Shown in pieces: positions 10,649 through 30,235 of a DNA stretch of 64,000 bases (position 1 is the stretch's first letter; each line of letters opens with the position of its first letter). Origin of the DNA: an uncultured Spirochaetaceae bacterium (GTDB lineage Bacteria; Spirochaetota; Spirochaetia; SZUA-6; DRHE01); assembly GCA_964389305.1 (NCBI GenBank), contig CAYMEK010000007.1, positions 12,911 to 76,910 on the forward strand. Direction: 5' to 3'. The notes beneath the pieces were generated by a model, which had not been told where the DNA came from, did no database searches, and saw only the letters and a list, made by a program, of their open reading frames with translations. The position numbers and the translations under genes were made by a program.

Positions 10649-10649
10649 C

Positions 10650-11159: not shown

Positions 11160-11163
11160 GACT

Positions 11164-12861: not shown

Positions 12862-12890
12862 TTGCAATTGGGCCGCGATTGTCCTACCAT
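12862..12890 (+). promoter_or_regulatory. Candidate sigma70 promoter for the AraC/PAS regulator
   Basis: TTGCAA (12862-12867), 17-nt spacer, TACCAT (12885-12890). About 30 nt upstream of the GTG start. Confidence 0.3.
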
Positions 12891-12926
12891 GCTCACAAAG
12901 CATGAAAGCCTAATCGGGGCCTGGAC

Positions 12927-13718: not shown

Positions 13719-13797
13719 AGGCTCGTACGACCACCGATCCCTGGCCGGACCGTAAGTATCTGGGCGGCCTCCAGGCCCCGTCCTTTTATTCCTGGCG

Positions 13798-15019: not shown

Positions 15020-16228
15020 ATGTTGAAGCGGATCGAGACGCTCAAAGCTTTTTACTCCTCGATGCAGGAAAGCAAAGCGATACGCGCCGCTTTAGCCGCC
15101 CAGGTCCTGGCCGGAAGCCCTCCGGAGGCGGCGGGCATCGGCAAGCTGCGCTCTCTGCTCGCCGCTCTGAACGATATACCGAAGGACAACGGCTGCTCCA
15201 TGCTGCGGGCCGGCGAAAAGATGCTGGCGCTGAAGCTGGACTACGAGATCGGCGAGCTGGAGAAGGACCTGCTGTTTCTCGAGAAGGGGGAGCAGGCCTT
15301 GCTCGCCTGCTTCGAGCGGTTGCACCCGGGCTTTTCCGAGCAGCTTCGCGCAGGGAGGGATTTTTTCGGGACCCAGGGGCGAGGCCGCCGTTTCCGAAAC
15401 TTCATCAGCGACCGCGACGGGACCGTCAATAACTACTGCGGCCGCTATCTCTCTTCGATCCAGTCGGTCTACAACGCTGTATTCCTGTCCCATCTCGCCC
15501 TGGGGGCGGCCGTCAATTCGGTCATCCTCACTTCGGCGCCGCTGGCCGATGGGGGCCTGTTGGATATCAGTGTGGCAGCGGATGGTCTGTTCGTCTATGC
15601 CGGCTCCAAGGGCCGGGAGTACCGGGACAGAACAGGTCGGATAGGCCGTTTCCCCATTGACGGGCCGAAGCAGGCCAAACTGGACGAGTTGAACCGCCGG
15701 CTCGGCGAGTTGCTGCAGGAACCGGACTACGAGCCGTTCGCCCTGATCGGCTCCGGCCTCCAGCACAAGTTCGGACAGACTACCGTAGCCCGTCAGGACA
15801 TCTACGGCTCCATCCCCGAAGCCGAGTCCCGGGATTTCATGCAGACGGTATCCGGGCTGATTCGGGAAATCGACCCGGAAGGGCTATATTTCAAAATAGA
15901 GGATACGGGAAAGGATATCGAGATCATCCTGACCGTCGAGGGAGAAGGTGGATTGAAGGACTTCGATAAGGGAGACGGCGTTTCCTTCCTGGACCATGAG
16001 CTCGATCTCGGTCTGAACCAGGGTCCGAACCTTATCTGCGGAGACACCTCTTCTGACCTGCCGATGGTCAGGGCGGCTGCGGTCGCGCCGGAAACCTGGA
16101 CGGTATTCGTAACCCGCGACGAAGGGCTGCGCCGATCGGTGCGGTCCCTCTGCCCGCACTCGCTGTTCGTGAGCGAGCCGGATATCCTGGTAGCCCTGCT
16201 GGACGATCTGGGAAAGGAGGGGCGATGA
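15020..16228 (+). CDS. HAD-superfamily phosphatase, trehalose-phosphatase-like core with a roughly 125-aa N-terminal extension
   Basis: 402 aa with motif I FISDRDGTV and motif IV-like CGDTSSDLPM. Its stop overlaps the next gene's start (ATGA). Confidence 0.6.
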   Translation: MLKRIETLKAFYSSMQESKAIRAALAAQVLAGSPPEAAGIGKLRSLLAALNDIPKDNGCSMLRAGEKMLALKLDYEIGELEKDLLFLEKGEQALLACFERLHPGFSEQLRAGRDFFGTQGRGRRFRNFISDRDGTVNNYCGRYLSSIQSVYNAVFLSHLALGAAVNSVILTSAPLADGGLLDISVAADGLFVYAGSKGREYRDRTGRIGRFPIDGPKQAKLDELNRRLGELLQEPDYEPFALIGSGLQHKFGQTTVARQDIYGSIPEAESRDFMQTVSGLIREIDPEGLYFKIEDTGKDIEIILTVEGEGGLKDFDKGDGVSFLDHELDLGLNQGPNLICGDTSSDLPMVRAAAVAPETWTVFVTRDEGLRRSVRSLCPHSLFVSEPDILVALLDDLGKEGR

Positions 16229-19200
16229 GCAACACAAGATTCTGCTGCGAGGGGGCGATCTTCGACCTGGATGGGGTCATCACCCAGACGGCCAAGGTCC
16301 ATTTCAAGGCCTGGAAGCAGACCTTCGACGAGTACCTTGCCGGCCGCAAAAAGAAAAAAAAGGAACAGCAGCGGGCCTTCGACTACGAGCGGGACTACAT
16401 CCCTTTCGTGGACGGCAAGCCGCGCTATCAGGGCGTCAAGTCCTTTCTCGAATCCCGGGACATCTTTATACCGTTCGGAGAGCCGGCGGATCCGGCGGAC
16501 AAGGAGACGGTGTGCGGGATCGGAAATCAAAAGAACCAGCTCTTCCGGGAGCTGGTCGCCTCCGACGGGGTGGAGATCTACGACTCCACGATCTCGTTCA
16601 TCAAGCAGCTCAAAGAGTCAAAGATAAAAGTCGGAGTGGCCTCATCGAGCATGAACTGCCGCTTCATCCTCGAAAAAACGGGACTGCTAGGCATGTTCGA
16701 TGCGATTATCGGCGGTACCGCCTCCAGAGAGCTGGATCTGAAAGGCAAGCCGGCCCCGGACATCTTCCTGGTGACGGCGGACAATATGGGGGTGCACCCC
16801 AGCTCCTGCCTGCTGGTTGAGGATGCGGTCTCGGGGGTGGAGGCCGGGCGGCGCGGCAACTTCGCCCTGGTCGTAGGCCTGGCCCGCTCGGAAGACGGAC
16901 AGGCCCTGAAAGCTTACGGCGCCGACATTGTGGTCCGCGACCTGAAGGAACTCGCCTTCCGGGACTTCGAGCGCTGGTTCGAAAAGGGATTGGAGCAGGA
17001 TAGCTGGATCCTGAGCTACCACGGCTTCGAGCCCCAGCAGGAGCGTCTGCGCGAGTCCCTGACTACGGTCGGCAACGGCTACTTCGCCACCCGGGGCTGC
17101 ATAGAGATGAATCGCGCCGACGAGGTGGTCCACTATCCAGGGACCTACATCGCCGGGGTGTACAACAAGCTGCCCAGCGTGGTCTATCGCAAGACAATCG
17201 AGAACAACGACCTGGTCAATTGCCCCAACTGGCTGCTCATCGAGGTCAAGATCAACAACGGCAAGTTTCGCAGTCCTCTGGACATGGAAATCTTGAGCTA
17301 CGAGCATACACTGAACATGCACCAAGCCGTGGTGAGCCGGCGCCTGACCTTCAAAGACAAGAAGGGAAGGATTACCACCATTGAGAGTAGCCGGTTCGCC
17401 AGCATGGCCGACGCGCATTTCTGCGCCCTGCGCTTCACGGTCCGGCCCGAGAACTGGAGCGGGAAAATCACTCTGCGTTCCGCGCTGGACGGCACGGTGA
17501 TCAACTACGGGGTCCCCCGCTACCGAGAGCTCAACTCCAGGCATCTGACTCCCATTTCCGTGGGCGAGCGGGAAGGGTGCATCTTTCTGCAGGTGCAGAC
17601 CGTCACCTCCAAGGTCAGGATCTACATGCAGGCCCGCCACAGCCTGCTCGTCGACGGGGAGAAGCTGAGCCGGTCGCGGGAGATCGTTCACGACGTGGGT
17701 CTGGTCTACGAGCAATTTACTTTCCAGGCCGAAGAGGGCAGGAGCTACACACTGGAGAAGATCGTCAGCCTGTTCACGGCCAGGGACCGCGATATCCTCG
17801 ATCCGCAGGCGGCCTCGCAGGACTCCCTGAGCCGGGCCGGCTCCTTTGCCGACCTGCTGGAGTCGCACAAACGGGCCTGGCGGGCCCTGTGGGACAAAGC
17901 CGATTTTCGCATCCAGGGCGACCGCTTCGCCCAGCAGATGCTGCGGCTGCACATCTATCATCTGCTCTGCACGGCCAGCCCCCACAACCGCCATATCGAT
18001 GCCGGGATGCCGGCCCGGGGGCTGCACGGGGAAGCGTACCGGGGGCACATCTTCTGGGACGAGCTGTTCATCTATCCCTTTTACAATCTCCACTTTCCCG
18101 AGATCTCCCGGGCCCTGCTCCTGTACCGCTACCGCCGCCTGGAGGGCGCCCGGGAGTACGCCCACCAGAACGGCTTTCGAGGCTCCATGTATCCCTGGCA
18201 GACCGCGGACAACGGGCAGGAGGAAACCCAAGTCATCCACTTCAACCCCGTTTCGGGCAAATGGGACCCGGACCTGAGCAGCCGCCAGCGTCATGTCTCC
18301 ATCGCCGTGGCCTACACTGTGTGGGAATACTTCTACTGCACCGGCGACCTGGAGTTTCTCAATGAGTACGGGGCGGAAATCCTGGTGCAGACCACCCGCT
18401 TCTGGGCCAGCATCGCCGAGTACGACGAGGCCGACGGGCGTTACCACATACGCGGGGTAATGGGGCCCGATGAGTTCCATGAGAAGCACCCAGATGCCGA
18501 CGAAGGCGGCCTGGCCGACAATGCCTATACCAACATCCTGGCCAGCTGGCTGATGCACAAGACCATCGAGACCCTCGAGTACCTGCCCAAGCAGGACATG
18601 AAAATCCTGGTGGAGAAAACCGGCTTCAAACCGGAGGAGAAGGAGCGCTGGAATGATATCGTGAGCAAGATGAACGTGGTCATCTCTAAGGAGGGGTTCA
18701 TCAGCCAGTTCGACGGCTTCCTCGAGCTCAAGGAGCTGGACTGGGAAGCCTACAGGAACAAGTACGGGAACATCGGCCGCCTGGACCGCATCCTCAAGTC
18801 CGAGGGAGACTCTCCGGACCGTTACCAGCTCTCCAAGCAGGCCGATGTCTTGATGAGCTACTACCTGCTGTCCCCGGGACAGGTCAAGCACATTCTGGAG
18901 CTGATGGGCTACCGGATCGGGAACGAGCTGGAACTGATGCGCAAGAACTACGATTACTACTGCCGGCGGACGAGTCACGGCTCCACCTTGAGCTTCATCG
19001 TTCACTCGGGGATTCTCAAATACCTCGAAGGTCACAAGAACGACATGTGGCAGTGGTTCCTTACCGCTTTGAGGAGCGACGTCGAGGACATCCAGGGCGG
19101 CACCACTCAGGAGGGCATCCACACCGGGGTGATGGGAGGCACGATCGACGTGGTAATGAAGGCCTTCGCCGGGATCAGCCTGTTCAAGGACGCGGTCCAG

Positions 19201-19410
19201 ATCGCACCCGAGCTGCCCGCCCACTGGCGGAGGCTGGCCTTCAAGATCGTGCACCGCCGGAACTGGTTCCACCTGGACATCACTCCGGGGCGGCTGGAAG
19301 TCAGGAAGCTCGCCGATAGTAAGAAAAACCCGGTGGATATTCTGGTCGCGGGCAAGCGCTACCCGTTGAAGGAAAAGGAATCCATAGAGATTCCGCTGGC
19401 GGCGGAGTAG
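16225..19410 (+). CDS. Fusion protein: beta-phosphoglucomutase-type HAD domain + GH65 disaccharide phosphorylase
   Basis: 1061 aa. N-terminal part has AIFDLDGVITQTA, VASSS, KGKPAPDIF and EDAVSGVEAG. C-terminal part has GH65 hallmarks including GVMGPDEFHE (catalytic Glu region). Confidence 0.85.
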   Translation: MSNTRFCCEGAIFDLDGVITQTAKVHFKAWKQTFDEYLAGRKKKKKEQQRAFDYERDYIPFVDGKPRYQGVKSFLESRDIFIPFGEPADPADKETVCGIGNQKNQLFRELVASDGVEIYDSTISFIKQLKESKIKVGVASSSMNCRFILEKTGLLGMFDAIIGGTASRELDLKGKPAPDIFLVTADNMGVHPSSCLLVEDAVSGVEAGRRGNFALVVGLARSEDGQALKAYGADIVVRDLKELAFRDFERWFEKGLEQDSWILSYHGFEPQQERLRESLTTVGNGYFATRGCIEMNRADEVVHYPGTYIAGVYNKLPSVVYRKTIENNDLVNCPNWLLIEVKINNGKFRSPLDMEILSYEHTLNMHQAVVSRRLTFKDKKGRITTIESSRFASMADAHFCALRFTVRPENWSGKITLRSALDGTVINYGVPRYRELNSRHLTPISVGEREGCIFLQVQTVTSKVRIYMQARHSLLVDGEKLSRSREIVHDVGLVYEQFTFQAEEGRSYTLEKIVSLFTARDRDILDPQAASQDSLSRAGSFADLLESHKRAWRALWDKADFRIQGDRFAQQMLRLHIYHLLCTASPHNRHIDAGMPARGLHGEAYRGHIFWDELFIYPFYNLHFPEISRALLLYRYRRLEGAREYAHQNGFRGSMYPWQTADNGQEETQVIHFNPVSGKWDPDLSSRQRHVSIAVAYTVWEYFYCTGDLEFLNEYGAEILVQTTRFWASIAEYDEADGRYHIRGVMGPDEFHEKHPDADEGGLADNAYTNILASWLMHKTIETLEYLPKQDMKILVEKTGFKPEEKERWNDIVSKMNVVISKEGFISQFDGFLELKELDWEAYRNKYGNIGRLDRILKSEGDSPDRYQLSKQADVLMSYYLLSPGQVKHILELMGYRIGNELELMRKNYDYYCRRTSHGSTLSFIVHSGILKYLEGHKNDMWQWFLTALRSDVEDIQGGTTQEGIHTGVMGGTIDVVMKAFAGISLFKDAVQIAPELPAHWRRLAFKIVHRRNWFHLDITPGRLEVRKLADSKKNPVDILVAGKRYPLKEKESIEIPLAAE

Positions 19411-19422
19411 CCCGGGCGTAGC

Positions 19423-20439
19423 ATGAAGGAGCGGATCGAGAGAACGCGGTTGCTGATCCTTAAGGTCCTGCGGGAAGCCAGGCAGCCGCTGGGAAGCCAG
19501 CAGATTGCCGAGCAGCTCTCCAGCCGCGGCATGCAGATCAGCGAGCGTACCGTGCGCCTGCACATGCAGGCCCTGGACGGGCAGGGGTTCACCGCGAACA
19601 TGGGTGTACGGGGCAGGCAGATCACCGAGCAGGGACGCGCCGAGCTGGCCCGGGCCAGGGCTTTCGAGAAGGTGGGATTCCTCAACGCCCAGATCGACCA
19701 GATGACTTACCGGATGAGCTTCGACCCGGCCACCCTGGACGGCACCGTGGTGGTCAATGTCAGCCTGCTGAAAACCGAGGTCTTGCTCGAGCACTTTTCG
19801 TTGATGCTGCGGGTCTTTGAAGCCGGCTACTCGATGGGGCGCCTGCTTACCGTCTTCGAACCGGGAGAGCAGGTGGGCGAGATTCTTGTTCCACCCGGCT
19901 TTTTAGGCGTCGGCACCGTATGCTCGATCTCCCTGAACGGCGTGCTCCTGGCCTGCGGAATTCCGACCTTTTCCAGGTTCGGAGGCTTGCTGGAGATGAA
20001 TAAGGGGAAACCGACCCGCTTCGTCGCCATTATCAACTACGACGGCACCACGCTCGATCCCCTGGAGATCTTCATCAAGAGCCGCATGACCAAGTACAGC
20101 GAGGCCGTGGCGAGCGGAAACGGCCTGATCGGTGCGGGATTCCGCGAGCTGCCGGCGGCCAGCAGGGAGCGGGTGGTGGAGCTGGCCTCCCGGCTGGATA
20201 GCATCGGCCTGGGAGGATTCATGGAGATCGGCTGGCCCGGCCAACCTCTTCTGGAAATACCCATCGACGAAGGCCGGATCGGAGCGATCGTGATCGGGGG
20301 CTTGAACCCGGTAGCCATACTGGAAGAAAAAGGAATAGAGGTAGCCTCCCGGGCCCTTTCGGGACTGGTGGACTACCGGAGACTGTTCCCGTACACCGAG
20401 CTGGGACGCCGCCTCAAGAGGATCTCCACATCACGCTAA
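19423..20439 (+). CDS. NrpR-like regulator (winged-helix + DUF128-type domain)
   Basis: 338 aa. N-terminus LLILKVLREARQPLGSQQIAEQLSSRGMQISERTVRLHMQALDGQGFT, then a region with GVGTVCSISLNGVLLACGIP as I recall for NrpR/DUF128 proteins. Only 12 nt after the GH65 gene. Confidence 0.65.
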   Translation: MKERIERTRLLILKVLREARQPLGSQQIAEQLSSRGMQISERTVRLHMQALDGQGFTANMGVRGRQITEQGRAELARARAFEKVGFLNAQIDQMTYRMSFDPATLDGTVVVNVSLLKTEVLLEHFSLMLRVFEAGYSMGRLLTVFEPGEQVGEILVPPGFLGVGTVCSISLNGVLLACGIPTFSRFGGLLEMNKGKPTRFVAIINYDGTTLDPLEIFIKSRMTKYSEAVASGNGLIGAGFRELPAASRERVVELASRLDSIGLGGFMEIGWPGQPLLEIPIDEGRIGAIVIGGLNPVAILEEKGIEVASRALSGLVDYRRLFPYTELGRRLKRISTSR

Positions 20440-20589
20440 CCGGCATAATTGCCGCTCTCAGTACCTAGGCCTCATACCTTAGAGCGGCCGGCAATACCGT
20501 GAACGGCGGCATTTTCAGATTTTTCCCGCAGCCGGACCTTTAAAGAAGGTATATTTTTACACAAAATCAATAAAAATCGGTTTTTTCTC

Positions 20590-20618
20590 TTGACGCTCAG
20601 GTGAAAGAATGCTAGGGT
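20590..20618 (+). promoter_or_regulatory. Candidate sigma70 promoter of the nuoE-like operon
   Basis: TTGACG (20590-20595), 17-nt spacer, TAGGGT (20613-20618), preceded by an AT-rich tract. Confidence 0.4.
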
Positions 20619-20630
20619 ACTGCTTCAAAC

Positions 20631-20646
20631 CGGCAATATATTGCCG
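20631..20646. promoter_or_regulatory. Perfect 16-bp palindrome CGGCAATATATTGCCG (candidate operator)
   Basis: Lies between the putative -10 and the ATG at 20663. Related half-site pairs occur at 20440-20454 and 20488-20499. Confidence 0.35.
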
Positions 20647-20662
20647 TTATCAGAGGCAGGCA

Positions 20663-21205
20663 ATGGAAACGGAAATCATGACGAAGTTCGCGAAAAAAAC
20701 GGGCGGCAACAACGGCCGTTCGTCCCTGGCGACGGCTTCAGGGCTGTCTACCCTTTCACCTGCAGGCGATAAACGCCCGGACCGGCGGCCGGCCGAGCTG
20801 ATCGAGCGGATGCAGGACCTGCAGGAAGCCCACGGCTTCCTCCCGGAAACGCTGCTGCGCGATCTGGCCTGTGAACTGGAAGTGGCGCCGATCGAAGTGT
20901 ATCGGGTCGCCAGCTTCTACAGGGCCTTCTCCCTGAAACCGAAAGGCCGCCACCTGATCACCCTCTGCAACGGCACCGCCTGTCACGTTCGCGGCTCCTC
21001 GACTCTCCTGGAGACTCTGCGAACCCAGGTCGGAATCGGTCCGGGAGAAACGAGTGAGGATGGCCGCTTCACTGTGCAGACGGTCAACTGCCTGGGGGCC
21101 TGCGCCCTGGGGCCTATAGCGGTTATCGACGGACGATATCACCATCACGTGAATCCGGCCAAGCTTCGCGCTCTGATCCGGGAGCTCAGCGAGAACGGGG
21201 AATAG
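20663..21205 (+). CDS. NuoE/HydC-like thioredoxin-fold [2Fe-2S] subunit
   Basis: ORF 20609..21205 trimmed to the ATG with GAGG upstream, since the track start would lie inside the predicted promoter. Cys ligand pairs LCNGTAC and NCLGAC. Confidence 0.85.
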   Translation: METEIMTKFAKKTGGNNGRSSLATASGLSTLSPAGDKRPDRRPAELIERMQDLQEAHGFLPETLLRDLACELEVAPIEVYRVASFYRAFSLKPKGRHLITLCNGTACHVRGSSTLLETLRTQVGIGPGETSEDGRFTVQTVNCLGACALGPIAVIDGRYHHHVNPAKLRALIRELSENGE

Positions 21206-21226
21206 AAAGTCTCTCGCGGGTATCCG

Positions 21227-23116
21227 ATGCACTGCCGGACCATCGGAGAGCTAACGAATCTGCGGAAAGCTCTCCAAGAGGACAGGGAAAAAGCGCGACA
21301 CACACTGATTCTCTCTTCAGGCACCTGCGGTCAGGCCTGCGGCTCCGGGCAGGTTGCCGAGGCTTTGGCGGAAGGGCTGCGCGGCAGCCGGCTGAACGGC
21401 GCGGTTCGCCTGCGGGTTACCGGCTGTCACGGCTTCTGTGAACAGGAGCCGCTTTTAATCGTGGAGCCCCAGGACCTCCTGTACTGCCGGATCAAGCCGG
21501 AGGATATCCCGGAAATCATTTCCGAGACCCTCGAGCAAGGCGTAGTCGTGGAGAGGCTGCTGTATTCGGATCCCTCCACAGGCCGAAAGATCTCCTGCGA
21601 GTCCGAGCTTCCCTTCTATCGCCACCAGGACCGGACCCTGATAGGCAGGAACAGGCTCGTCGATCCGCGGCAAATAACCGACTACATCGCCTCCGGCGGG
21701 TATGCCTCGCTGGCCACGGCATTGAGCCGCCTGGAACCCGAACAGGTGATCGAAGAGATCAAGCGTTCCGGCCTGCGCGGCCGGGGAGGAGGGGGATTCC
21801 CAACCGGCAGAAAATGGGAATCCTGCCGCCGCGCTACCGGCTCCCCCAAGTACGTGATCTGCAACGCCGACGAGGGTGATCCTGGGGCCTACATGGACCG
21901 CAGCCTGCTGGAGGGCAATCCCCACTCTATAATCGAGGGAATGCTGATCGGCGCCTATGCTATCGGGGCCGAGCAGGGCTACATCTATGTCCGCAACGAA
22001 TACCCGCTGGCCGTGGAGCACGCCCGGATCGCCATCGAGCAGGCCCGTTCGCTGGGTCTGCTGGGCGAGAACATTCTGGGAAGCTCTTTCTCCTTCGATC
22101 TACAGATAACCCGGGGAGCGGGGGCTTTCGTGTGTGGGGAATCCACGGCGCTGATGGCTTCCCTGGCCGGTGGCGTCGGCGAGCCTTCTCCCAAGGACGT
22201 TCATACCGTGGAGAAGGGATTTCTCGACCGGCCTACCAATCTCAACAACGTGGAGACCTGGGCGAATGTACCTCTGATCATCGAGCAGGGTGCCGATCGT
22301 TTCGCCGCCAAGGGCACGGCGGCCAGCAAAGGCACCAAGATATTCGCCCTCACCGGCAAGGTCCGCAACACCGGCCTGGTGGAGGTGCCCATGGGAACTC
22401 CTCTGGCGCGGATCGTCTACGATATCGGCGGGGGAGCGAGCGACGGAGCCGGCATCAAGGCGGTACAGATCGGAGGGCCCTCTGGCGGCTGCCTGCCCGC
22501 AGAGCTCCTCCACCTGCCGGTGGATTTCGAGGCCATGACTGAGGCGGGGACTATGGTCGGGTCGGGTGGGCTGGTGGTTATGGACAGCCGCACCTGCATG
22601 GTGGACGTAGCCCGTTATTTTCTCGACTTTCTCATCGAAGAATCCTGCGGCAAGTGTTTTCCCTGCCGGGTAGGGCTGCCGCGCATGCGGGAGATCGTCA
22701 CGGATATATGCAACGGCGAGGGCACGATGGAAAAGCTCGAGCTGCTGCAGGAGACCGCCGAGACCGTGTCCAAAGCCTCTCTGTGCGCGCTCGGCAAAAC
22801 CGCTGCCAATCCAGTATTCACCACCATCCGCTACTTCGAGGACGAATACCGGGCGCACATTCTGGAAAAGCGCTGTCCGGCAGGGGTCTGCAAGCCCCTG
22901 ATCCGCTACCGCATCGACCAGCAGCGCTGCAGGGCCTGCGGCGCCTGCGCAAAGATCTGCCCGCAGCAGGCCATCACGGTCCTTAGGAAAGGAGGGGAAA
23001 AAAGCTACCTCATCCAATCCGAGCTGTGCTCGAAATGCGGGACCTGCCGCCAGGCCTGTGCCTTCGAAGCGATTGAAGTTGTCCAGGAGGAGCGATGCCG
23101 GAATACGTTAGCCTGA
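21227..23116 (+). CDS. NuoF/HydB-like NADH-binding FMN/Fe-S subunit with N-terminal [2Fe-2S]-type and C-terminal 2x[4Fe-4S] extensions
   Basis: 629 aa with GLRGRGGGGFPTGRKW, ESCGKCFPCRVG, N-terminal GTCGQACGS...VTGCHGFC, and C-terminal CRACGACAKICP and CSKCGTCRQAC. Confidence 0.9.
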   Translation: MHCRTIGELTNLRKALQEDREKARHTLILSSGTCGQACGSGQVAEALAEGLRGSRLNGAVRLRVTGCHGFCEQEPLLIVEPQDLLYCRIKPEDIPEIISETLEQGVVVERLLYSDPSTGRKISCESELPFYRHQDRTLIGRNRLVDPRQITDYIASGGYASLATALSRLEPEQVIEEIKRSGLRGRGGGGFPTGRKWESCRRATGSPKYVICNADEGDPGAYMDRSLLEGNPHSIIEGMLIGAYAIGAEQGYIYVRNEYPLAVEHARIAIEQARSLGLLGENILGSSFSFDLQITRGAGAFVCGESTALMASLAGGVGEPSPKDVHTVEKGFLDRPTNLNNVETWANVPLIIEQGADRFAAKGTAASKGTKIFALTGKVRNTGLVEVPMGTPLARIVYDIGGGASDGAGIKAVQIGGPSGGCLPAELLHLPVDFEAMTEAGTMVGSGGLVVMDSRTCMVDVARYFLDFLIEESCGKCFPCRVGLPRMREIVTDICNGEGTMEKLELLQETAETVSKASLCALGKTAANPVFTTIRYFEDEYRAHILEKRCPAGVCKPLIRYRIDQQRCRACGACAKICPQQAITVLRKGGEKSYLIQSELCSKCGTCRQACAFEAIEVVQEERCRNTLA

Positions 23117-23793
23117 CCATCGACGGCTGCCTGGTGCGCGCTCCGCGGGGGACCTCCGTGCTGGACGCCGCCCTGGAGTACGGAATCTGCATTCCCCATC
23201 TATGTCATATGAGGGACTTGACGCCCCTCGGCGCCTGCAGGCTCTGCCTGGTCGAGGTGGTGGCTAACGGGCGCTCCAGGATCACCACCTCCTGCACCCT
23301 GGAGGTAAAGGAGGGCCTGGTCATAAAGGCCCATACCGAGCAGATCCGCCGCATCCGCAAGAACCTGGCCGAGATGCTGGTCGCCGAAGCGCCGAACTCC
23401 AGGGCCATCCAGGATATCGCCCTGCGCTGCGGCGTGAAAAGGGTGCGCTATCCCTTCCACCACGCCGATTGCGTGCTCTGCGGCCGTTGCGTACGGGTGT
23501 GCACCGAGGTCTGGCGGTCCGGCTCGCTGGGCTTCGTGGGCCGGGGACAGGAACGCCGGGTGGCCCTGCCCTTCGAGCAGCGTCCCGATACCTGCAAGCA
23601 CTGCAATAGCTGCATCACCGTATGTCCCATGACCATCCCGCCCTGCGACGGCCCGATGAAGAAGGGGGAGGAGTATTTCTGCGGGAAATGCGAGTCCCAA
23701 CTGCTGGCAGCGGAACAGTCCCCCGGAAGCTGCATCTGGTGCCGGCTGGGCGAAGGATTTCAATGCACCCGCCAGGTGGCTCGAAAGAAATAG
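23095..23793 (+). CDS. Fe-S relay protein resembling the NuoG/HydA N-terminus ([2Fe-2S] + 2x[4Fe-4S]); no catalytic domain
   Basis: 232 aa with IPHLCH...GACRLCLVEV, HHADCVLCGRCVRVC and CKHCNSCITVCP, plus a C-terminal CGKC...CIWC pair. Confidence 0.8.
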   Translation: MPEYVSLTIDGCLVRAPRGTSVLDAALEYGICIPHLCHMRDLTPLGACRLCLVEVVANGRSRITTSCTLEVKEGLVIKAHTEQIRRIRKNLAEMLVAEAPNSRAIQDIALRCGVKRVRYPFHHADCVLCGRCVRVCTEVWRSGSLGFVGRGQERRVALPFEQRPDTCKHCNSCITVCPMTIPPCDGPMKKGEEYFCGKCESQLLAAEQSPGSCIWCRLGEGFQCTRQVARKK

Positions 23794-23805
23794 GAGGAAC
23801 TCGAT

Positions 23806-25404
23806 ATGAACCTGCAGCGACCGAACGCCAACGACGTGACCCAGACGGTTAACCGCTCCCCGAACGTGGTGCCCGGATCAGGACTGTGCAGCCGCTGTAT
23901 CGACGGCTGCCGCGGCAACTGCGAGGTGTTCAAATCCGCTTTCCGCAGCCGGGAGGTGCTCTACCCCGGGCCCTATGGGGAAATCTCAGCGGGGGGTGAT
24001 AAGGACTACCCGGTGGACTACTCCCACCTGAACATCCAGGGCTACGCATCCGGCGCCAGGGGACTGCCGGAAGGGGTGGAGGCCGGCCCGGATACCGCCA
24101 TCTTTCCCGAAGTGAGCACCGAGACCGAGTATGGGTGGCAGTCCAAGGTGAAGATGAAGATTCCGGTCTTCTCCGGCGCCCTGGGCTCCACCGACATCGC
24201 CCGCAAGAACTGGGAGCACTTCGCCATCGGCGCCGCCATCTCCGGGGTCACCGTAGTCTGCGGCGAAAACGTCTGCGGGGTCGATCCGGGATTGGAGCTG
24301 GACTCCAGGGGCAAGATCTCCCTTTCTCCCGATCTGGACCGGCGCATCGAAATCTATAAGCGGTTCCACGAGGGCTACGGGGAGATTCTCGTACAGATGA
24401 ACGTGGAGGACACCCGCCTCGGGGTGGCCGAGTATGTGCGCAGCAAGCACGGGCTGGACACCATCGAGCTGAAGTGGGGACAGGGGGCCAAGTGCATCGG
24501 CGGTGAGATCAAGGTCAAGACCCTCGAGCGCGCTCTGGAGCTGAAGAAGCGGGGCTACCTGGTGACCCCCGATCCCGGTCTGGAAACGGTCCGGGCGGCG
24601 TTCAAGAACGGGGCGATACGGGAGTTCGAACGCCACTCCCGCCTGGGCTTCGTGAGCGAGGAGAGCTTCCACCGTGAGATCGAGCGCCTGCGGGCTCTGG
24701 GATTCTCCCGCATCACCCTGAAGACCGGCGCCTACTCCATGAAGGAGCTGGCCATGGCGATCAGGTATGCTTCGGATGCCAGGCTGGACCTGCTGACCAT
24801 CGACGGCGCTCCCGGCGGCACCGGCATGAGCCCCTGGCGCATGATGGAGGAATGGGGAATTCCCACCTTCTACCTGCAGTCCCTGGCCTACGAGTTCTGC
24901 GAGCGGCTGGCCGCCCGGGGACAAAGGGTGCCCGATCTGGCCGTTGCCGGGGGTTTTTCCAGCGAGGATCACCTGTTCAAGGTTCTGGCCGTGGGGGCCC
25001 CCTACGTAAAAGCGGTCTGCATGGGCCGGGCCTTCATCATTCCCGGCATGGTGGGCAAGAACATAGGCTACTGGATCGAAGGCAATGACCTGCCTAGCAC
25101 CGTCTCCCAGTACGGAAGGACCCCCCGGGAAATCTTCGTCTGCTACGACGAGCTGGCCGGCAGGTACGCGTCACTGAGCGAGGAGATACCACTCGGGGCG
25201 ATCGGGGTCTACAGCTTTCTCCTGAAGCTGAAGGTCGGGCTGCAGCAGCTAATGGCGGGAAGCAGGAACTTCAGGGTATCGAGTATCTCACGCAGCGACG
25301 TCATGGCCCTGACCGAGGAGGCGGCGAAGATCTCCGGCATTCCCTATATCATGGACGCCTACCGGGAAGAAGCGCAGTCGATCCTCGACGGCTCGAGTAC
25401 CTGA
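23806..25404 (+). CDS. FMN-binding glutamate-synthase-family protein (GltB central/FMN domain only)
   Basis: 532 aa with overall similarity to the GltS FMN domain as recalled (GAKCIGGEIK, IDGAPGGTGMSP, LAVAGGF). Extra N-terminal CSRCIDGCRGNC motif. Confidence 0.8.
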   Translation: MNLQRPNANDVTQTVNRSPNVVPGSGLCSRCIDGCRGNCEVFKSAFRSREVLYPGPYGEISAGGDKDYPVDYSHLNIQGYASGARGLPEGVEAGPDTAIFPEVSTETEYGWQSKVKMKIPVFSGALGSTDIARKNWEHFAIGAAISGVTVVCGENVCGVDPGLELDSRGKISLSPDLDRRIEIYKRFHEGYGEILVQMNVEDTRLGVAEYVRSKHGLDTIELKWGQGAKCIGGEIKVKTLERALELKKRGYLVTPDPGLETVRAAFKNGAIREFERHSRLGFVSEESFHREIERLRALGFSRITLKTGAYSMKELAMAIRYASDARLDLLTIDGAPGGTGMSPWRMMEEWGIPTFYLQSLAYEFCERLAARGQRVPDLAVAGGFSSEDHLFKVLAVGAPYVKAVCMGRAFIIPGMVGKNIGYWIEGNDLPSTVSQYGRTPREIFVCYDELAGRYASLSEEIPLGAIGVYSFLLKLKVGLQQLMAGSRNFRVSSISRSDVMALTEEAAKISGIPYIMDAYREEAQSILDGSST

Positions 25405-25636: not shown

Positions 25637-26971
25637 ATGGCTGATATTTCCAAGCCGTCCAAGCCTACGGTCCTTGAAGACTATGGAACGAAGCCCGTTC
25701 CCGCCTCCGAGGGTAAGAGCTGGTTCACCGTCGGCATCGTTTTCTGGGGGATTGCCTTCTGTCTGCCAGCCTTCCTCATCACCAGCCTGGTCGCCTCCGC
25801 CGTAACCCTCGGGACCGCACTCGGCGCGTTCCTCATCGGCGTGGCCATCCTCACCGCTATCACCACGGCCACCGGTCTGGTCGGCGCCCAAACACGGCAA
25901 TCCTTCGGCATGTCCGCGCGCTACACCTTCGGCAAGTGGGGCGCCCTGCTCATCCAGATTGCCATGTTCTTCGCCATGTGGGGTTGGTTCGGTGTACAGC
26001 TCGGCTTCTTTGTCGCCGGTCTCGGAGAGGGTGGGCTGATGTTCGCCTTCAACTCGGTAGGAGTCACCGGCGTGCCGGTCTGGCTGTTGATGGTCATCGG
26101 AGGAGCCTGTATGACCACCACGGCGGTGTTCGGCTTCAAGGCGATCGAGCGGCTTACTGTCGTGGCGATACCCCTATTGCTGATCATTGTTATATCCACC
26201 ACCGTCCGCGCCTACCAGGGAACCTCGTTTGCCGCGGCCGTAAGCAGGACTGCGGAAGGTGCGATGCCCTTCGGCGCAGCCATCTCCATTGTGGTCAGCT
26301 CATTCGTGGTCGGAGCCCTGGCAGGACCGGACATGTCCCGGTATGCTAAAAATAAGGGCCACGCTGCCGGCGGCATGATCTTCGGCATGGGCGTCGGCTT
26401 CTTCGCAGTGCTGGTGCTGGCGGCGATCATGATCAAGGGTGCCGGGGAGATGGACTTTTCCAAGGTCATGCTGAGCCAGCCCAACATCTTCTGGCTGGTC
26501 CTCGCCATCATTACGATCCTGCTGGCCGCCTGGACGACCAATGACAACAACCTGTACCAGGGCAGCCTGGCTCTCAACGCCGTGCTGACCTTCATTCCCA
26601 AGTGGCTGCTTACCCTCCTGGGCGGAATCGTCGGCACGATCTTCGCTCTGCTGGGCATCAACACCGCCGGTGGCTTCACCACTTTCCTCGGGATCATCGC
26701 AGTGGTCGTTCCTCCCGCCGGAGCGGTCATGGCCGTCGACTACCTGCTGTTCCGCGGCGGCGGCTACCGTAGCGAAGACTATGCCAAGGTACCGGCTGTG
26801 CGGATCGAATCGGTAATCTCATGGGTTCTGGGCTCCGCCATGGGGTTCCTGACCAACTTCAAAGTCTTCACCTTCACCGGAATCATTGTGCTGGACTCCT
26901 TCATCGTTGCCGCCGTGGTGCACTTCATCGTCTCTTTGATCCTGCGGCGGAAGCTGAAGTTCCAGTTCTGA
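25637..26971 (+). CDS. NCS1-family transporter (cytosine/purine/hydantoin permease type)
   Basis: 444 aa with about 12 hydrophobic spans and an N-terminal region typical of purine-cytosine permeases. Confidence 0.8.
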   Translation: MADISKPSKPTVLEDYGTKPVPASEGKSWFTVGIVFWGIAFCLPAFLITSLVASAVTLGTALGAFLIGVAILTAITTATGLVGAQTRQSFGMSARYTFGKWGALLIQIAMFFAMWGWFGVQLGFFVAGLGEGGLMFAFNSVGVTGVPVWLLMVIGGACMTTTAVFGFKAIERLTVVAIPLLLIIVISTTVRAYQGTSFAAAVSRTAEGAMPFGAAISIVVSSFVVGALAGPDMSRYAKNKGHAAGGMIFGMGVGFFAVLVLAAIMIKGAGEMDFSKVMLSQPNIFWLVLAIITILLAAWTTNDNNLYQGSLALNAVLTFIPKWLLTLLGGIVGTIFALLGINTAGGFTTFLGIIAVVVPPAGAVMAVDYLLFRGGGYRSEDYAKVPAVRIESVISWVLGSAMGFLTNFKVFTFTGIIVLDSFIVAAVVHFIVSLILRRKLKFQF

Positions 26972-26990
26972 GTCCTTCGAGCAGTCCGGC

Positions 26991-27020
26991 AACAGGCTGC
27001 CCCGGCGCGGGCAGCCTGTT
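26991..27020 (+). terminator. Strong hairpin between the permease and racemase genes (terminator or attenuator)
   Basis: 12-bp perfect stem AACAGGCTGCCC / GGGCAGCCTGTT with a 6-nt loop, followed by ATCCTTCTTTCC. Confidence 0.5.
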
Positions 27021-27053
27021 ATCCTTCTTTCCCTGCCGACAGGAAAGTAGACC

Positions 27054-27785
27054 ATGAAAAAAAACATCAGTATTCGTATCATCGTCCCTATTATCACTGA
27101 CCGCTTCAACCCTGAGGTACGCCGAGAGGCTTCATCTTTTGCCGCCCCTGACACTGCGATTGAGGTTGTCAACCTGGAAAAGGGCCCCGCCTCGATCGAG
27201 TCTTTTTACGACGAAAGCCTGGCCGCCCCCTTCATCGCCGAGCAGGCGGTTCGTGCCGAGCAGGAAGGCTGTGACGGGATCTTCGTAACCTGTTTCGGAG
27301 ATCCGGGAGTCGAGGCGGCCCGCGAGGTGGTCAGGGTCCCGGTGGTAGGAGGATTTCAGCCCGCGGTTCTCACCGCCTCTCTGATTGCAGACCGCTGGTC
27401 GGTCGTGACAGTGCTCGAAAGACTCGGTCCCATGGTGTATCAAAACGCCCGCAAGCTCGGCTTGAGCGAGAACCTGGCCTCGGTGCGGGCAGTAGACATC
27501 CCGGTGCTGTCACTGGCAGACCGCGGGCGGCTGGAAGAGAGACTGCTCCGCGAGGCGGAGCTGGCGGTCAGGGAAGACAAGGCGCAGGCGGTCGTTCTGG
27601 GCTGTACCGGCATGCTGGGCTTGGCCCGACAGCTACAGGCGACGCTGGCCGATCGCGGGGTCCCCGTTCCGGTGGTAGATCCCACCGCAGCCGCCATCGG
27701 CACTCTGCTGCTCCTCATTCGCAGCGGCACTGCCCACAGCAAGCTCACCTACCCCTTCCCGCCGGAAAAGCAGCGGCGCTTCTAA
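27054..27785 (+). CDS. Asp/Glu/hydantoin racemase family protein
   Basis: 243 aa with two catalytic-Cys regions, FVTCFGDPG and VVLGCTGM, spaced as in hydantoin racemases. Confidence 0.85.
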   Translation: MKKNISIRIIVPIITDRFNPEVRREASSFAAPDTAIEVVNLEKGPASIESFYDESLAAPFIAEQAVRAEQEGCDGIFVTCFGDPGVEAAREVVRVPVVGGFQPAVLTASLIADRWSVVTVLERLGPMVYQNARKLGLSENLASVRAVDIPVLSLADRGRLEERLLREAELAVREDKAQAVVLGCTGMLGLARQLQATLADRGVPVPVVDPTAAAIGTLLLLIRSGTAHSKLTYPFPPEKQRRF

Positions 27786-27836
27786 TCTCCGTTGTAGAAA
27801 TGTAGGCTGCGAGTCCCGGTTCGGGGACCCCTAGGC

Positions 27837-28160
27837 CTAGGAAGCTCTGTCTTGCTTCATTCTCCGGGTAAACGCCAGTACCGCCTGGTCGAGCATCCGG
27901 ATGAAGGCCTCCGGGTCGGTCATGAGACTGAACTTGCCTTCGTCGATGAGCTCCTTGAGATGGAGAAGAAAGTCCTGATAGCGGCTGCCGCTTCCTGCAG
28001 GGGCAGCAGCCAGGAGGGAGCACAGACGGGATACTCCTTCGGCCAGCCGAAAGGGTCCATACTCGGCGGGCTCGTCGAAGAGGCCACGGGCGGAGGAAAG
28101 CATATAACCGATGAGGTCGAACAGACCCCTGTCCAGCGATTCCGGAAGCCCTGGATTCAT
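27837..28160 (-). CDS. Small hypothetical protein
   Basis: ORF trimmed to MNPGLPESL with GGGAGGG 5 nt upstream. Starts 1 nt after the nitroreductase stop. No family recognised with confidence. Confidence 0.5.
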   Translation of the reverse strand: MNPGLPESLDRGLFDLIGYMLSSARGLFDEPAEYGPFRLAEGVSRLCSLLAAAPAGSGSRYQDFLLHLKELIDEGKFSLMTDPEAFIRMLDQAVLAFTRRMKQDRAS

Positions 28161-28161
28161 C

Positions 28162-28677
28162 CTAACCCTCCCTTGTTCCGAATTTTTCCCAGTGGATGGC
28201 CCCCTCATCCCGAGGGGGTGCCTGAGGGGCGACGGCGGGATAGCCGAACATGATCAGGAGCTCCGGCTGAAGGTTCTCCGGGGCCTGCAGGATCTCCCGC
28301 AGGGCCGCAAGGTTAGTGGAGCGCATCACGCAGCTTCCCATACCGAGATCGTAGGCCCGCAGCATCATGTTCTGTGCAGCCATGGCGCAATCGAACAGAG
28401 CCAGAACCGGTCCCAGACGGAACGCCGCTGCCTTGCGCTGATCCGAGCAGATGCAAACCAGAGCCTTGGGTTCCCAAAGCATCCCGGGGGAGACCACCCG
28501 GATCTGATGGATCGTGTCCCGATCCGTGATGCCGATAAAAGCCCAGGGCTGTTTGTTCCCTCCCGAGGGAGCCCAGATCCCGGCCTTCAGCACCTTCTGC
28601 AGCAGCTTTCGGTCCACCGTCTGGTCGGTGTACTGCCGGACACTCCGCCTTCCGAATATCGCTTTCTCTACTTCCAT
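28162..28677 (-). CDS. Nitroreductase family protein
   Basis: 171 aa with N-terminus AIFGRRSVRQYTDQ and SGGNKQPW, typical of the family. Confidence 0.85.
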   Translation of the reverse strand: MEVEKAIFGRRSVRQYTDQTVDRKLLQKVLKAGIWAPSGGNKQPWAFIGITDRDTIHQIRVVSPGMLWEPKALVCICSDQRKAAAFRLGPVLALFDCAMAAQNMMLRAYDLGMGSCVMRSTNLAALREILQAPENLQPELLIMFGYPAVAPQAPPRDEGAIHWEKFGTREG

Positions 28678-28678
28678 C

Positions 28679-30235
28679 TTAGCTGGCGAGGCGGCCCACG
28701 GCCTTCACTCTGAAGCGTACCGCGTTGCTGGGAAGGTAGGCCAAGGGGATCTCTTCCAGCTCCACGATTTCCAGACTCTCCTTCTCGGCCCCGGCCCTCA
28801 TCGCCTCTTGGCGGGCCTCCTCCTTGACCTGGGCGATCACCGCGTCCCGGCCCTTGGTGGCCACATCGTACACCCCGTCCACGCTACCGGAGACCTGGGC
28901 TATCGCCGCTCCAATGGCGTTGGCCACATCAAAGTGCTCGGGACGCACGACCCGGCTCGCCCCGGTCAGACGATTCGGCAGGAGAATGCTCCCCCCTCCG
29001 ACCAGAACGACCGGGATGTCTTCGGAGGTGGTTTTCACTTTGTCGACCACCTCTTCGACCATGGCCTGGATGCAGGCGGCGGCTGACTTTACCATGGCTT
29101 TGTCCAAGCTTTTCACTTTCTCGGCATCCCCTAAGGCAGCCAGTCCCGCGGCGACCGCAATATCGGTGGCGGTGAGAGTCTTGCCGCCGAACAGAAGCGC
29201 CTCCCGAGCGATACGGTAGCCGACCGAATCAGGCCCGACCGCGCAGCCGCCGTTCTTCCGGTGCACCAGGGAACCGCCCCCCAGGCCGATGGAGATCAGG
29301 TCGGGCATGCGGAAGTTGGTGCGCACTCCGCCGATCTGCACATCCACGGTAGACTCCCGGGGGAAGCCGCGGCGCAGGATCCCCACGTCTGTAGTCGTAC
29401 CTCCCACGTCCACCACGACGGCTTCGCTCAGACCGGACAGAAAGGCCGCCCCCCGCAGGGAGTTGGTGGGGCCGGAGGCTATGGTGAACACCGGGTAGCG
29501 GCGGGCGTAGTCCACGGACATGAGGGTGCCGTCGTTCTGGGTAATGAACAGATCCGCCTGGATCCCGTGGGTCAGCAGCACATCCTGAAAGGAACGATAA
29601 GCCGTATCCGCGATGCTACGAATGGCCGCATTCAGAATGGTGGCGTTCTCCCGCTCCAGGATGCCGATGGTACCGATCTCGCTGGATAGGGAAATCGGGA
29701 AATCTTCCCCAAACAGGGCTTGAGCCTTATCGCGCACCGTACGCTCCTGCTCTGCGTTGATCGGGGAAAAGACGCAGGAGACCGCCAGGGCCTGGATATC
29801 CGCTTCTTTGAGAGCCTGCAGAGTCTCTTCGATCTCCCGGTCGTCCGGGGCGGCCAGCAGCGCCCCGTTGTACTCATACCCCCCCTTCACGATATGGTAG
29901 TGCCTGCCCAGATGGGACAGGATATCCTGCGGCCATTCCAAATACGGCGGAACGGCCAATCCCGAAGGAGCGCTCAACCGGATGATCCCGACCCTGGACA
30001 AACCCCTGCGCTCCACGATCGCATTGGTACAGTGAGTCGTTCCCAACATGGCATGGACGATCTTTTTCGTATCGATCCTTCCACCCTCCAGCACTCCGTC
30101 CACAGCCTCTTTGATCCCCGTTGAGACGTCCTCCGTAGTCGGTCGCTTACACTTAGCCGCCACGCGGTCCTTCGGGTCCAGAATCACCGCGTCGGTGTTG
30201 GTGCCGCCCACGTCAATGCCCAATCTGTAGTTCAT
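28679..30235 (-). CDS. Hydantoinase/oxoprolinase family protein (HyuA-like, ATP-grasp/ASKHA type)
   Basis: 518 aa with N-terminus YRLGIDVGGTNTDAVIL and a second phosphate motif VVVDVGGTTTDVG. Confidence 0.85.
   Translation of the reverse strand: MNYRLGIDVGGTNTDAVILDPKDRVAAKCKRPTTEDVSTGIKEAVDGVLEGGRIDTKKIVHAMLGTTHCTNAIVERRGLSRVGIIRLSAPSGLAVPPYLEWPQDILSHLGRHYHIVKGGYEYNGALLAAPDDREIEETLQALKEADIQALAVSCVFSPINAEQERTVRDKAQALFGEDFPISLSSEIGTIGILERENATILNAAIRSIADTAYRSFQDVLLTHGIQADLFITQNDGTLMSVDYARRYPVFTIASGPTNSLRGAAFLSGLSEAVVVDVGGTTTDVGILRRGFPRESTVDVQIGGVRTNFRMPDLISIGLGGGSLVHRKNGGCAVGPDSVGYRIAREALLFGGKTLTATDIAVAAGLAALGDAEKVKSLDKAMVKSAAACIQAMVEEVVDKVKTTSEDIPVVLVGGGSILLPNRLTGASRVVRPEHFDVANAIGAAIAQVSGSVDGVYDVATKGRDAVIAQVKEEARQEAMRAGAEKESLEIVELEEIPLAYLPSNAVRFRVKAVGRLAS

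Follow-up and report, generated by a model that had tools for sequence, protein, structure and literature searches.

The genome of an uncultured Spirochaetaceae bacterium carries an operon in which genes for a NuoE/NuoF-like redox module of the Bfu family are followed by a gene for a protein resembling the flavin mononucleotide (FMN) domain of glutamate synthase (GltS, GOGAT), with a gene for an NrpR-like regulator upstream. The question raised by this locus is which substrate the module would serve through such a partner, and whether the system belongs to nitrogen assimilation. The locus lies in a stretch of 64,000 nt (contig CAYMEK010000007.1 of assembly GCA_964389305.1, positions 12,911–76,910), the whole of which is called the window below and supplies the coordinates used. 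All five open reading frames (ORFs) are on the + strand, between nt 19423 and 25404. The parts of the answer differ in firmness. The four proteins encoded downstream of nrpR very probably form a Bfu-type complex, and control of their operon by nitrogen through NrpR is probable. That the complex is an NrpR-controlled, NADH/ferredoxin-fed reductive aminase, making glutamate from 2-oxoglutarate, is a reading to which we give an even chance.

Gene order and subunit identities

The NrpR-like regulator (nt 19423–20439, 338 aa) is encoded 223 nt upstream of four tightly packed genes. These specify a thioredoxin-like [2Fe-2S] protein related to NuoE (BfuC; nt 20663–21205, 180 aa, with a longer alternative start possible at nt 20609), a HydB-type NuoF-like protein (BfuB; nt 21227–23116, 629 aa), a short iron–sulfur (Fe-S) protein resembling WorA (BfuA; nt 23095–23793, 232 aa) and a flavoprotein similar to the GltS FMN domain, the putative catalytic subunit (nt 23806–25404, 532 aa), which is called the barrel protein here after its predicted fold. 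The genes are separated by a 21-nt gap (nt 21206–21226), a 22-nt overlap (nt 23095–23116) and a 12-nt gap (nt 23794–23805). These positions and spacings, and the motifs quoted for the products, had been given in an earlier reading made without database searches (the sequence-only reading), and all were reproduced in the ORF table and translations of the window. Profile hidden Markov model searches with Pfam likewise returned the NrpR, NuoE-like, NuoF-like, NuoG-N-like and Glu_synthase domains that it had assigned. The arrangement is real and not due to chance. On an independent metagenome contig (L247) the gene order is that of the window, and the gene caller used for that contig chose the identical start for the 180 aa NuoE-like protein; in this comparison the barrel protein P0001, 99% identical to that of the window, stood in for the latter. 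In a consensus scan the operon itself received no strong promoter or terminator call; the downstream NCS1 permease gene has a promoter-like site to itself, and a strong terminator. No riboswitch or other RNA family was detected with Rfam, either in the leader region or across the whole window.

The NuoE-like protein matches 2Fe-2S_thioredx (PF01257, E = 1.2e-45), with cysteines in the motifs CNGTAC and NCLGAC, and the HoxE/NuoE models of NCBIfam match it below their cut-offs. Its gene adjoins the bfuB-like gene, as is typical of the Bfu family, ending 21 nt before the start of the latter. In the NuoF-like protein, which bears the motifs GRGGGGFPTGRKW and ESCGKCFPCR, the FMN/NADH site and the [4Fe-4S] cluster B1 are represented by Complex1_51K (PF01512, E = 1.3e-43) and NADH_4Fe-4S (PF10589, E = 1.4e-31). 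The C-terminus has a PF12838 (Fer4_7) match at residues 567–615 with two CxxCxxCxxxC motifs, CRACGACAKIC and CSKCGTCRQAC, corresponding to clusters B3 and B4, and a weak PF01257 match at residues 20–100, with cysteines in GTCGQAC and GCHGFC, corresponds to the thioredoxin-like [2Fe-2S] domain of cluster B5. The sequence-only reading had considered this architecture to be of the HydB/HndC type, and the best matches in the PDB bear this out, with E-values from 1e-226 to 1e-202: 7t2r_B (NiFe-HydB, 2.3e-226, aligned over residues 25–616), 9mqx_B (WorB, 2e-216), 9n5u_B (NfnB, 5e-204) and 8a6t_B (HydB, 2e-202). The match to NuoF of complex I is much weaker (~1e-100). Three residues of the Acetomicrobium mobile enzyme, F182, A202 and M204, are reported to be specific to bifurcating BfuB (PMC9304861). 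A202 and M204 lie in DPGAFMD of 7t2r_B, which is kept as DPGAYMD in the protein of the window; for F182 no unambiguous position was obtained, and the closest Phe in 7t2r_B is aligned with a Ser. By their domains and motifs the NuoE- and NuoF-like proteins are identified as a BfuC/BfuB core.

The 232 aa Fe-S protein (Pfam Fer2_4 and Fer4_7) contains a single [2Fe-2S] motif besides two CxxCxxCxxxC motifs. Its best match in the PDB is WorA (9mqx_A, 247 aa, E = 5.2e-30, residues 4–184), which has been described as a short BfuA with clusters A1, A2 and A4, without A3 and the large C-terminal domain, and in which a C-terminal zinc finger and helix recruit the catalytic module (PMC12318220). In the protein of the window the region of the HydA motif HxxxCxxCxxxxxC reads LVAEAPNSRAIQD, so that, as in WorA, there is no His-ligated A3 motif, and a large C-terminal alpha/beta domain is also missing. 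Its own C-terminal tail, CxxC-x13-CxxC, is conserved in orthologs encoded with the same NuoE- and NuoF-like partners and does not align to WorA. The cluster motifs and the missing C-terminal domain point to a short, WorA-like BfuA. With a HydB-like NuoF and a WorA-like Fe-S protein, the first three genes (the trio) thus specify a complete unit of BfuC, BfuB and short BfuA, a plug for which the catalytic partner has to be supplied separately.

The candidate for this role is the barrel protein, which bears the motif CSRCIDGCRGNC and scores 48 bits against PF01645 (Glu_synthase; cut-off 20.4), the match covering residues 282–402 and model positions 185–302 of 369. NCBIfam has no model for it, and at present the databases name the family only as "FMN-binding glutamate synthase family protein". 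The family is compact: an exhaustive HMMER scan of 1.84 billion representatives gave 1120 relatives at E<=1e-3, of which 181 reach E<=1e-30. It divides into type A, the subfamily of the window, and type B, which is ~50% identical. Orthologs of type A are 70–85% identical across bacteria and archaea, and their hosts include Omnitrophota, Planctomycetota, Dehalococcoidia, Thermodesulfobacteriota, Nitrospirota, Clostridia, Methanosarcinales, Methanoperedens, Methanothrix, Bathyarchaeia and Altiarchaeales. BLAST likeness to canonical or MJ1351-type archaeal GltB is limited to ~85 residues around DGxxGGTGxSP. An AlphaFold2 model (pLDDT 74, pTM 0.79) shows a confident (beta/alpha)8 barrel at residues ~105–485, and a Foldseek comparison with the PDB placed FMN-dependent barrels first (alpha-hydroxy-acid oxidases, IDI-2, DHODH and Dus; E~1e-6, TM ~0.5). 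Since fold comparison gave generic FMN barrels only, the kinship to GltS was decided by profile–profile comparison. Hhalign against a profile of 11 bona fide GltS FMN domains drawn from the retrieved loci returned a probability of 90.8% (E = 1.2e-6) over 324 columns and the whole barrel. Among the aligned segments are KWGQGAKCIGGE (containing K229) with IKIxQGAKPGxGG, KKRGY (R249) with AKTRY, and DGAPGGTGMSP with xGGDGGTGASP. The last of these segments holds the FMN-phosphate motif DGxxGGTGxSP. In an alignment of both types K229 does not vary and the conservation of R249 is at least 90%; presumably they correspond to K972 and R992 of GltS, which bind 2-oxoglutarate.

There are also differences from GltS. 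The cysteines of its [3Fe-4S] cluster (Cx5Cx4C; invariant C357, C363 and C368) align to the Cys-free segment MVGKNIGYWIEG. Four N-terminal cysteines, C28, C31, C35 and C39 (CxxCxxxCxxxC), are invariant in types A and B and are most simply read as a [4Fe-4S] site that would take over electron entry. The amidotransferase, central and GXGXG domains are absent from the barrel protein, from the window ORFs scanned and from type-B operons. As the sequence-only reading had stated, the window supplies no glutamine amidotransferase, GXGXG or GltD gene among the ~45 other ORFs scanned, and gave no GltD-like match. The same reading had described the 532 aa protein as consisting only of the GltB FMN domain. 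The domain assignment stands, in view of the PF01645 and hhalign matches, but the protein belongs to a separate family of remote homology that lacks the [3Fe-4S] site. As judged by the alignments and by the missing GOGAT features it is a homolog of the GltS synthase domain and not a member of the classical GOGAT family.

Genomic association and nitrogen context

The association of NuoEF-like genes with a GltB-like gene, on which the sequence-only reading was built, recurs in other genomes. It was assessed in sets of 80 genome loci (the best 80 among the matches listed) centred on type A, on the Fe-S subunit and on type B, and in a second type-A set of 77, the two type-A sets comprising 157 locus entries. 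In type-B loci the Fe-S gene is directly upstream in 76/80, the remaining four having <350 nt of upstream sequence, and 63 of the 64 loci with >=3.3 kb upstream carry both NuoF and Fe-S genes there on the same strand. These loci represent >15 phyla, the hosts including Aminicenantes, Zixibacteria, Ignavibacteria, Bacteroidota, Planctomycetota, Acidobacteriota, Firmicutes, KSB1, Latescibacterota, Acetothermia, Thermoplasmatota, Methanoperedens and ANME-1 (L163–L166 are examples annotated with Pfam). A gene of the subtype found in the window directly follows the trio in ~10 genomes (L003, L027, L083, L084, L086, L087, L089, L115, L160 and the contig of P0002), and the trio is near a type-A gene in L059 and L072 of the type-A-centred set of 80. 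In Methanoperedens and Altiarchaeales the trio heads an operon that adjoins a type-A gene and itself ends in a type-B paralog. The Fe-S-centred loci with enough sequence retain the NuoE–NuoF–FeS trio in nearly every case, with a type-A gene <=7 kb away in ~18/80. At least seven assemblies were seen to carry stand-alone trio genes as well as type-A genes.

The trio also varies with the barrel it accompanies. Fe-S subunits encoded beside type A are 63–75% identical to that of the window, compared with 33–45% for those beside type B, so that this subunit diverges together with its barrel partner. Of 67 type-B operons, 45 encode NuoF as a fusion of ~1050 aa, in which the ferredoxin-like C-terminal 2x[4Fe-4S] domain is swapped for a GltD/NfnL-type unit (Fer4_20 + Pyr_redox_2); the remaining 22 have a C-terminus like that in the window. 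A natural fusion of Fer4, FrhB and barrel domains, P0377 (a family relative, 34% identity), shows at the level of sequence that the barrel can accept interchangeable electron-input modules. Taken together, the conservation in type B, the co-divergence of the Fe-S subunit, the GltD fusions and the P0377 fusion make it very likely that the Bfu-type trio and the barrel protein are linked both physically and functionally.

Two arrangements of the trio may be recorded separately. The fusions mentioned above, for example at L167 (nt 3061–6222; 44 more in L167–L246), give the order NuoE / NuoF::GltD / short BfuA / GltB-like and two nicotinamide-binding flavin sites. At 52 of the 80 trio loci the trio is alone behind a divergent 324 aa regulator whose C-terminus is a LuxR/GerE helix-turn-helix and whose N-terminal part is uncharacterised (within L083–L162, e.g. 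L161, nt 3520–4494, - strand), mainly in Dehalococcoidia and Desulfobacterota.

Genes of nitrogen metabolism are frequent around the barrel gene. Within a few kb of type A, glutamate dehydrogenase (GDH) is encoded at 14/80 loci and NrpR at 12/80 (35/77 in the second set), while GlnA was found at 8–9 loci, canonical gltB at 9, split archaeal-type gltB at 9, GlnK and Amt at 8 and 4, and CarAB and PyrG at several each. A GAF-ANTAR regulator is immediately upstream of type A at 14/80 loci. Type-B operons have GDH nearby in 13/80 and GlnA in 10/80, and that of L165 has glnA and a gene for an AsnC-type regulator directly upstream. The GAF-ANTAR proteins are of the RNA-binding antiterminator type (L021, nt 5524–6261; L081, nt 9249–9974; 12 more Omnitrophota-type loci), often with GDH just downstream, and would represent a second, different nitrogen-type control of the type-A gene. 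Genes for HisF-like and/or HisH-like proteins are <=1.5 kb from type-A genes in ~37 locus entries, including Methanothrix; they occur in several arrangements in Dehalococcoidia and Methanothrix (e.g. L072, nt 7206–7976; L252; L300, nt 4636–5295; L077; L080; ~30 further entries) and could be either housekeeping histidine genes or a dedicated glutaminase/ammonia-channel partner. A KaiC/RecA-like ATPase (~370–420 aa, or 899 aa) is encoded beside type A in Nitrospirota (L288, L292, L296, L301, L302 and L305), also at L067, L147 and L289, and beside the trio in some Desulfobacterota, and may be another regulator.

The NrpR-like protein of the window has both an NRD1_2 domain (PF01995, E = 1.8e-77) and a winged helix (PF08461, E = 2.2e-19). 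Combining the two type-A sets, its orthologs adjoin the barrel gene in 47/157 locus entries, and on the contig of P0002, a barrel protein 85% identical to that of the window, the order NrpR–NuoE–NuoF–FeS–GltB is repeated with different flanking genes. The intergenic region contains a perfect 16-nt palindrome, CGGCAATATATTGCCG (nt 20631–20646), a candidate NrpR operator that lies 16 nt 5' of the nuoE-like ATG and has no other exact match within the window. An imperfect palindrome found by reading the sequence and by a regex scan, CGGCATAATTGCCG (nt 20442–20455), is a candidate for the other half of an operator pair. A weak promoter-like element, TTGACG-17 nt-TAGGGT (nt 20590–20618, + strand), is suggested by reading of the sequence at a place where the consensus scan gave no + strand promoter. 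The pattern CGGCAA-N2-4-TTGCCG also occurs between nrpR and the GltB-like or NuoE genes in L009, L110, L139 and L160, the loci with the closest NrpR orthologs. By our own estimate (a 12-base motif in 320-nt regions) it would be expected by chance at ~1e-4 per region. It is absent from Dehalococcoidia loci, whose NrpR is only ~40% identical. The pattern is a candidate for the first operator of a bacterial NrpR, unlike the GGAA-N6-TTCC of methanogens; an operator of the methanogen type was rejected for this locus, the pattern being absent from its control region. The possibility of NrpR-type nitrogen control, raised in the sequence-only reading, is made plausible by the adjacency of NrpR, by the gene order around P0002 and by the recurrent palindrome, and such control is what we would expect. 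The nrpR gene itself starts 12 nt after that of a GH65 phosphorylase–HAD phosphatase fusion protein (1061 aa), which in turn overlaps a trehalose-6-phosphate phosphatase gene by 4 nt (region nt 15020–20439, identical in order in L247), and so it looks to be co-transcribed with trehalose/compatible-solute genes.

Candidate reaction and its alternatives

Ammonium assimilation usually proceeds by GDH, which is cheap and of low affinity, or by the glutamine synthetase–glutamate synthase (GS-GOGAT) route, which costs one ATP and is of high affinity. In methanogens NrpR is a 2-oxoglutarate-responsive nitrogen repressor. A reductive aminase controlled by it would work as follows. NrpR would repress the operon through the CGGCAA-N2-4-TTGCCG palindromes and release it when 2-oxoglutarate accumulates under nitrogen limitation. 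In the BfuBC core, hydride from NADH would be accepted at the FMN, and electrons from reduced ferredoxin would enter by the C-terminal 2x[4Fe-4S] (B3/B4-type) domain. The short BfuA would act as both Fe-S wire and adaptor, passing electrons to the Cys4 cluster near the N-terminus of the barrel protein, which would stand in for the [3Fe-4S] cluster of classical GltS and deliver them to the FMN, where 2-iminoglutarate, formed from 2-oxoglutarate and ammonia, would be reduced to L-glutamate. The 2-oxoglutarate+NH4+/glutamate couple is more positive than NAD+/NADH, so the glutamate reaction would run only in the reductive direction. Use of both donors, the stoichiometry supposed here, would let energy-limited anaerobes that are short of nitrogen assimilate ammonium with a strong driving force and without ATP; an alternative energetics would bifurcate NADH oxidation to a high-potential substrate and ferredoxin. 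The oxidation of both donors has been proposed for menaquinone- or peroxide-reducing Bfu enzymes (PMC9304861), in a direction resembling that proposed for the complex of the window. A fuller version is put forward tentatively, at rather less than an even chance: that an unrecognised class of glutamate synthase exists in anaerobic bacteria and archaea of >15 phyla, consisting of a glutaminase-less FMN/[4Fe-4S] synthase with BfuABC, in which NADH and ferredoxin together drive amination with free ammonia under the control of NrpR.

Several results weigh against a glutamate-forming complex. The homology of the barrel to the GltS FMN domain is remote. Only some third of the PF01645 model is spanned by the Pfam match, sequence and profile searches of the PDB with the barrel protein returned nothing meaningful (only OmpLA and S19 noise), GltS was outside the top 50 in the Foldseek comparison, and the N-terminal 100 residues, including the Cys motif, are of low confidence in the AlphaFold2 model. 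The linkage is also far from general, as ~60/80 trio loci have no GltB-like gene within 7 kb, and >100 of the 157 type-A entries, such as those of Methanolobus, have no NuoEF within the flanks. Most type-A genes being solitary, the barrel protein is therefore not strictly dependent on the NuoEF module. The methanogen operator GGAA-N6-TTCC occurs four times in the window, a count not above chance, and not at all in nt 20440–20662. On energetic grounds, the 2-oxoglutarate/glutamate couple would not be a typical mid-potential third substrate of Bfu enzymes. Many hosts carry canonical or split GOGAT or GDH genes nearby, and because of this the need for another glutamate-forming enzyme is not obvious and the barrel would not be the sole glutamate synthase. 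The term glutaminase-less is itself challenged by the HisH/HisF-like genes and by class-II glutamine amidotransferase (GATase)-like genes, the latter of which adjoin type A in some Nitrospirota and other loci.

Of the alternatives, the one that survives best keeps the Bfu-type complex and changes the substrate, the barrel then reducing some other nitrogen-related compound such as a 2-oxo or imino acid, an N-heterocycle or a scavenging intermediate. The remote relationship to GltS, the nearest folds (alpha-hydroxy-acid oxidases, IDI-2, DHODH and Dus) and the GOGAT and GDH already owned by the hosts would all fit, as would the NCS1 permease, hydantoin racemase, hydantoinase-like and S-Me-THD genes that follow the operon in the window. 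These N-heterocycle genes, however, were near the barrel gene in 0/160 other loci, whereas the neighbours that do recur (GDH, GlnA, GOGAT, Amt/GlnK and NrpR) centre on 2-oxoglutarate, glutamate and glutamine. The conserved Lys of the QGAK motif and the conserved Arg, and the GltD-like fusions in type-B operons, also argue for a glutamate-related substrate, and we consider a different one unlikely, though a serious competitor.

Less probable again is that the barrel is the synthase half of a glutamine-dependent enzyme, with ammonia supplied by a separate glutaminase (a HisH/HisF-like protein, a class-II GATase-like protein or a co-resident GOGAT). The HisF/HisH-like genes and the class-II GATase-like neighbours described above could be such partners, and in L003 and L084 the operon is closely preceded by canonical gltB. 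Against this, none of these genes was found among the scanned ORFs of the window or in the four-gene type-B operons, and HisF/HisH may be housekeeping histidine genes.

That the trio and the barrel are mere neighbours, the former a generic NADH:ferredoxin (or other) oxidoreductase and the latter fed directly by ferredoxin, is improbable: the self-contained trio with its own LuxR-type regulator (52/80 loci) and the mostly solitary type-A genes speak for it, but it sits poorly with the same-strand conservation of type B and trio (63/64), the overlapping or tightly spaced genes of the window, the co-divergence of the Fe-S subunit, the precedent of WorA as a short BfuA recruiting a catalytic module, and the lack of any other plausible third-substrate module encoded with the trio.

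Related systems and neighbouring genes

The closest parallel to the proposed complex is WorABCSL of Acetomicrobium mobile (PDB 9mqx, PMC12318220), in which a BfuBC core and a short BfuA of ~240 aa also recruit a separate catalytic module. That module is composed of tungstopterin WorL and polyferredoxin WorS, whereas in the window it would be a GltS-type FMN/Fe-S barrel; the tail of the Fe-S subunit after residue 184 does not align with WorA, and the third substrate would be reduced above the NAD potential instead of being oxidised at mid potential. A BfuBC core is likewise shared with NfnABC/Stn, a Bfu-type transhydrogenase, and with HydB subunits bearing a GltA/GltD domain, the "GltA" form of which has been found in archaeal hybrid hydrogenases (PMC12018979, PMC11829005, PMC11216029). 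In NfnABC/Stn a GltD/NfnL-like module with flavin adenine dinucleotide and 2x[4Fe-4S] is joined to Bfu subunits, as it is in 45/67 type-B operons. NfnABC has its GltD-like domain on BfuA, uses NADPH as third substrate and has no GltB-type subunit, while the window has no GltD-like domain.

Classical GltS (GltBD and ferredoxin-dependent GltS) and the split MJ1351-like form share the homologous FMN (beta/alpha)8 synthase domain and a nitrogen-assimilation gene context with the barrel protein. They differ in that the latter is without amidotransferase, central and GXGXG domains, has an N-terminal Cys4 motif in place of the [3Fe-4S] cysteines, and would receive electrons from BfuABC and not from GltD or free ferredoxin. 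The F420-dependent glutamate synthase (FGltS), a bioinformatic prediction only, also pairs a stand-alone GltS-type subunit with a swapped-in input module; there it is an F420H2 dehydrogenase and here NuoEF/Bfu, and the likeness is one of concept, echoed by the Fer4–FrhB–barrel fusion P0377. The NrpR of Methanococcus and Methanosarcina has the same winged helix and NRD architecture as that of the window and is similarly found beside nitrogen-assimilation genes, but the host here is a bacterium and its control region has another palindrome in place of GGAA-N6-TTCC.

The partners listed in the survey of Bfu enzymes are hydrogenase, formate dehydrogenase, Nfn, F420, Wor, Bam, Por, CODH, Mbh, Nuo and rubrerythrin, and the words "glutamate" and "GltB" are absent from its text and supplement (PMC9304861). 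Later papers on Bfu structures bring in glutamate synthase solely as the enzyme from which the NfnL-like domain evolved. In the literature searched (open-access papers and preprints) no paper was found that describes a GltB-type subunit together with a NuoEF/Bfu module, which agrees with the statement of the sequence-only reading that no characterised enzyme is known to have this composition. We rate as new a GltS-type catalytic partner for the Bfu family and, for a GltS-type synthase, the cluster arrangement and subunit composition; the system is not categorically new. If the proposal is true, ammonium assimilation would have a third option that spends low-potential reducing power instead of ATP, a high-driving-force alternative to GS-GOGAT that would matter for the energy economy of methanogens, ANME archaea, Dehalococcoidia, Omnitrophota, Aminicenantes, sulfate reducers and gut Clostridia. 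The modular Bfu family would gain a biosynthetic, nitrogen-regulated reaction and a new third substrate, and a function would be provided for a barrel family conserved at 70–85% across domains of life. With four soluble subunits, and hosts that have been cultured or enriched, the system is directly testable.

Other gene clusters of the window surround the operon. The region following it (nt 25637–31323) encodes the NCS1 permease, an Asp/Glu/hydantoin racemase, a nitroreductase, and hydantoinase/oxoprolinase-like and S-Me-THD (DUF917) proteins, which suggests N-heterocycle or hydantoin utilisation. Its permease, hydantoin racemase, hydantoinase and DUF917 genes were considered as parts of the system and rejected, their recurrence being 0/160 related loci. 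Near the left end (nt 503–14727) are genes for a peptide ABC transporter, a proline-racemase-family protein, a tungsten-type aldehyde:ferredoxin oxidoreductase, DAO-type and Pyr_redox_2 flavoproteins, an AraC/PAS regulator and a D-2-hydroxyacid dehydrogenase; by its gene content this looks like a catabolic island for amino acids of the hydroxyproline or opine type. A third cluster (nt 49539–61756) includes two ORFs without Pfam matches (nt 52483–53805 and 57366–58289) and specifies a D12-class adenine methyltransferase with a large additional fused region (626 aa), a MoxR-type AAA ATPase, a transglutaminase-domain protein and a family-B DNA polymerase of 839 aa.

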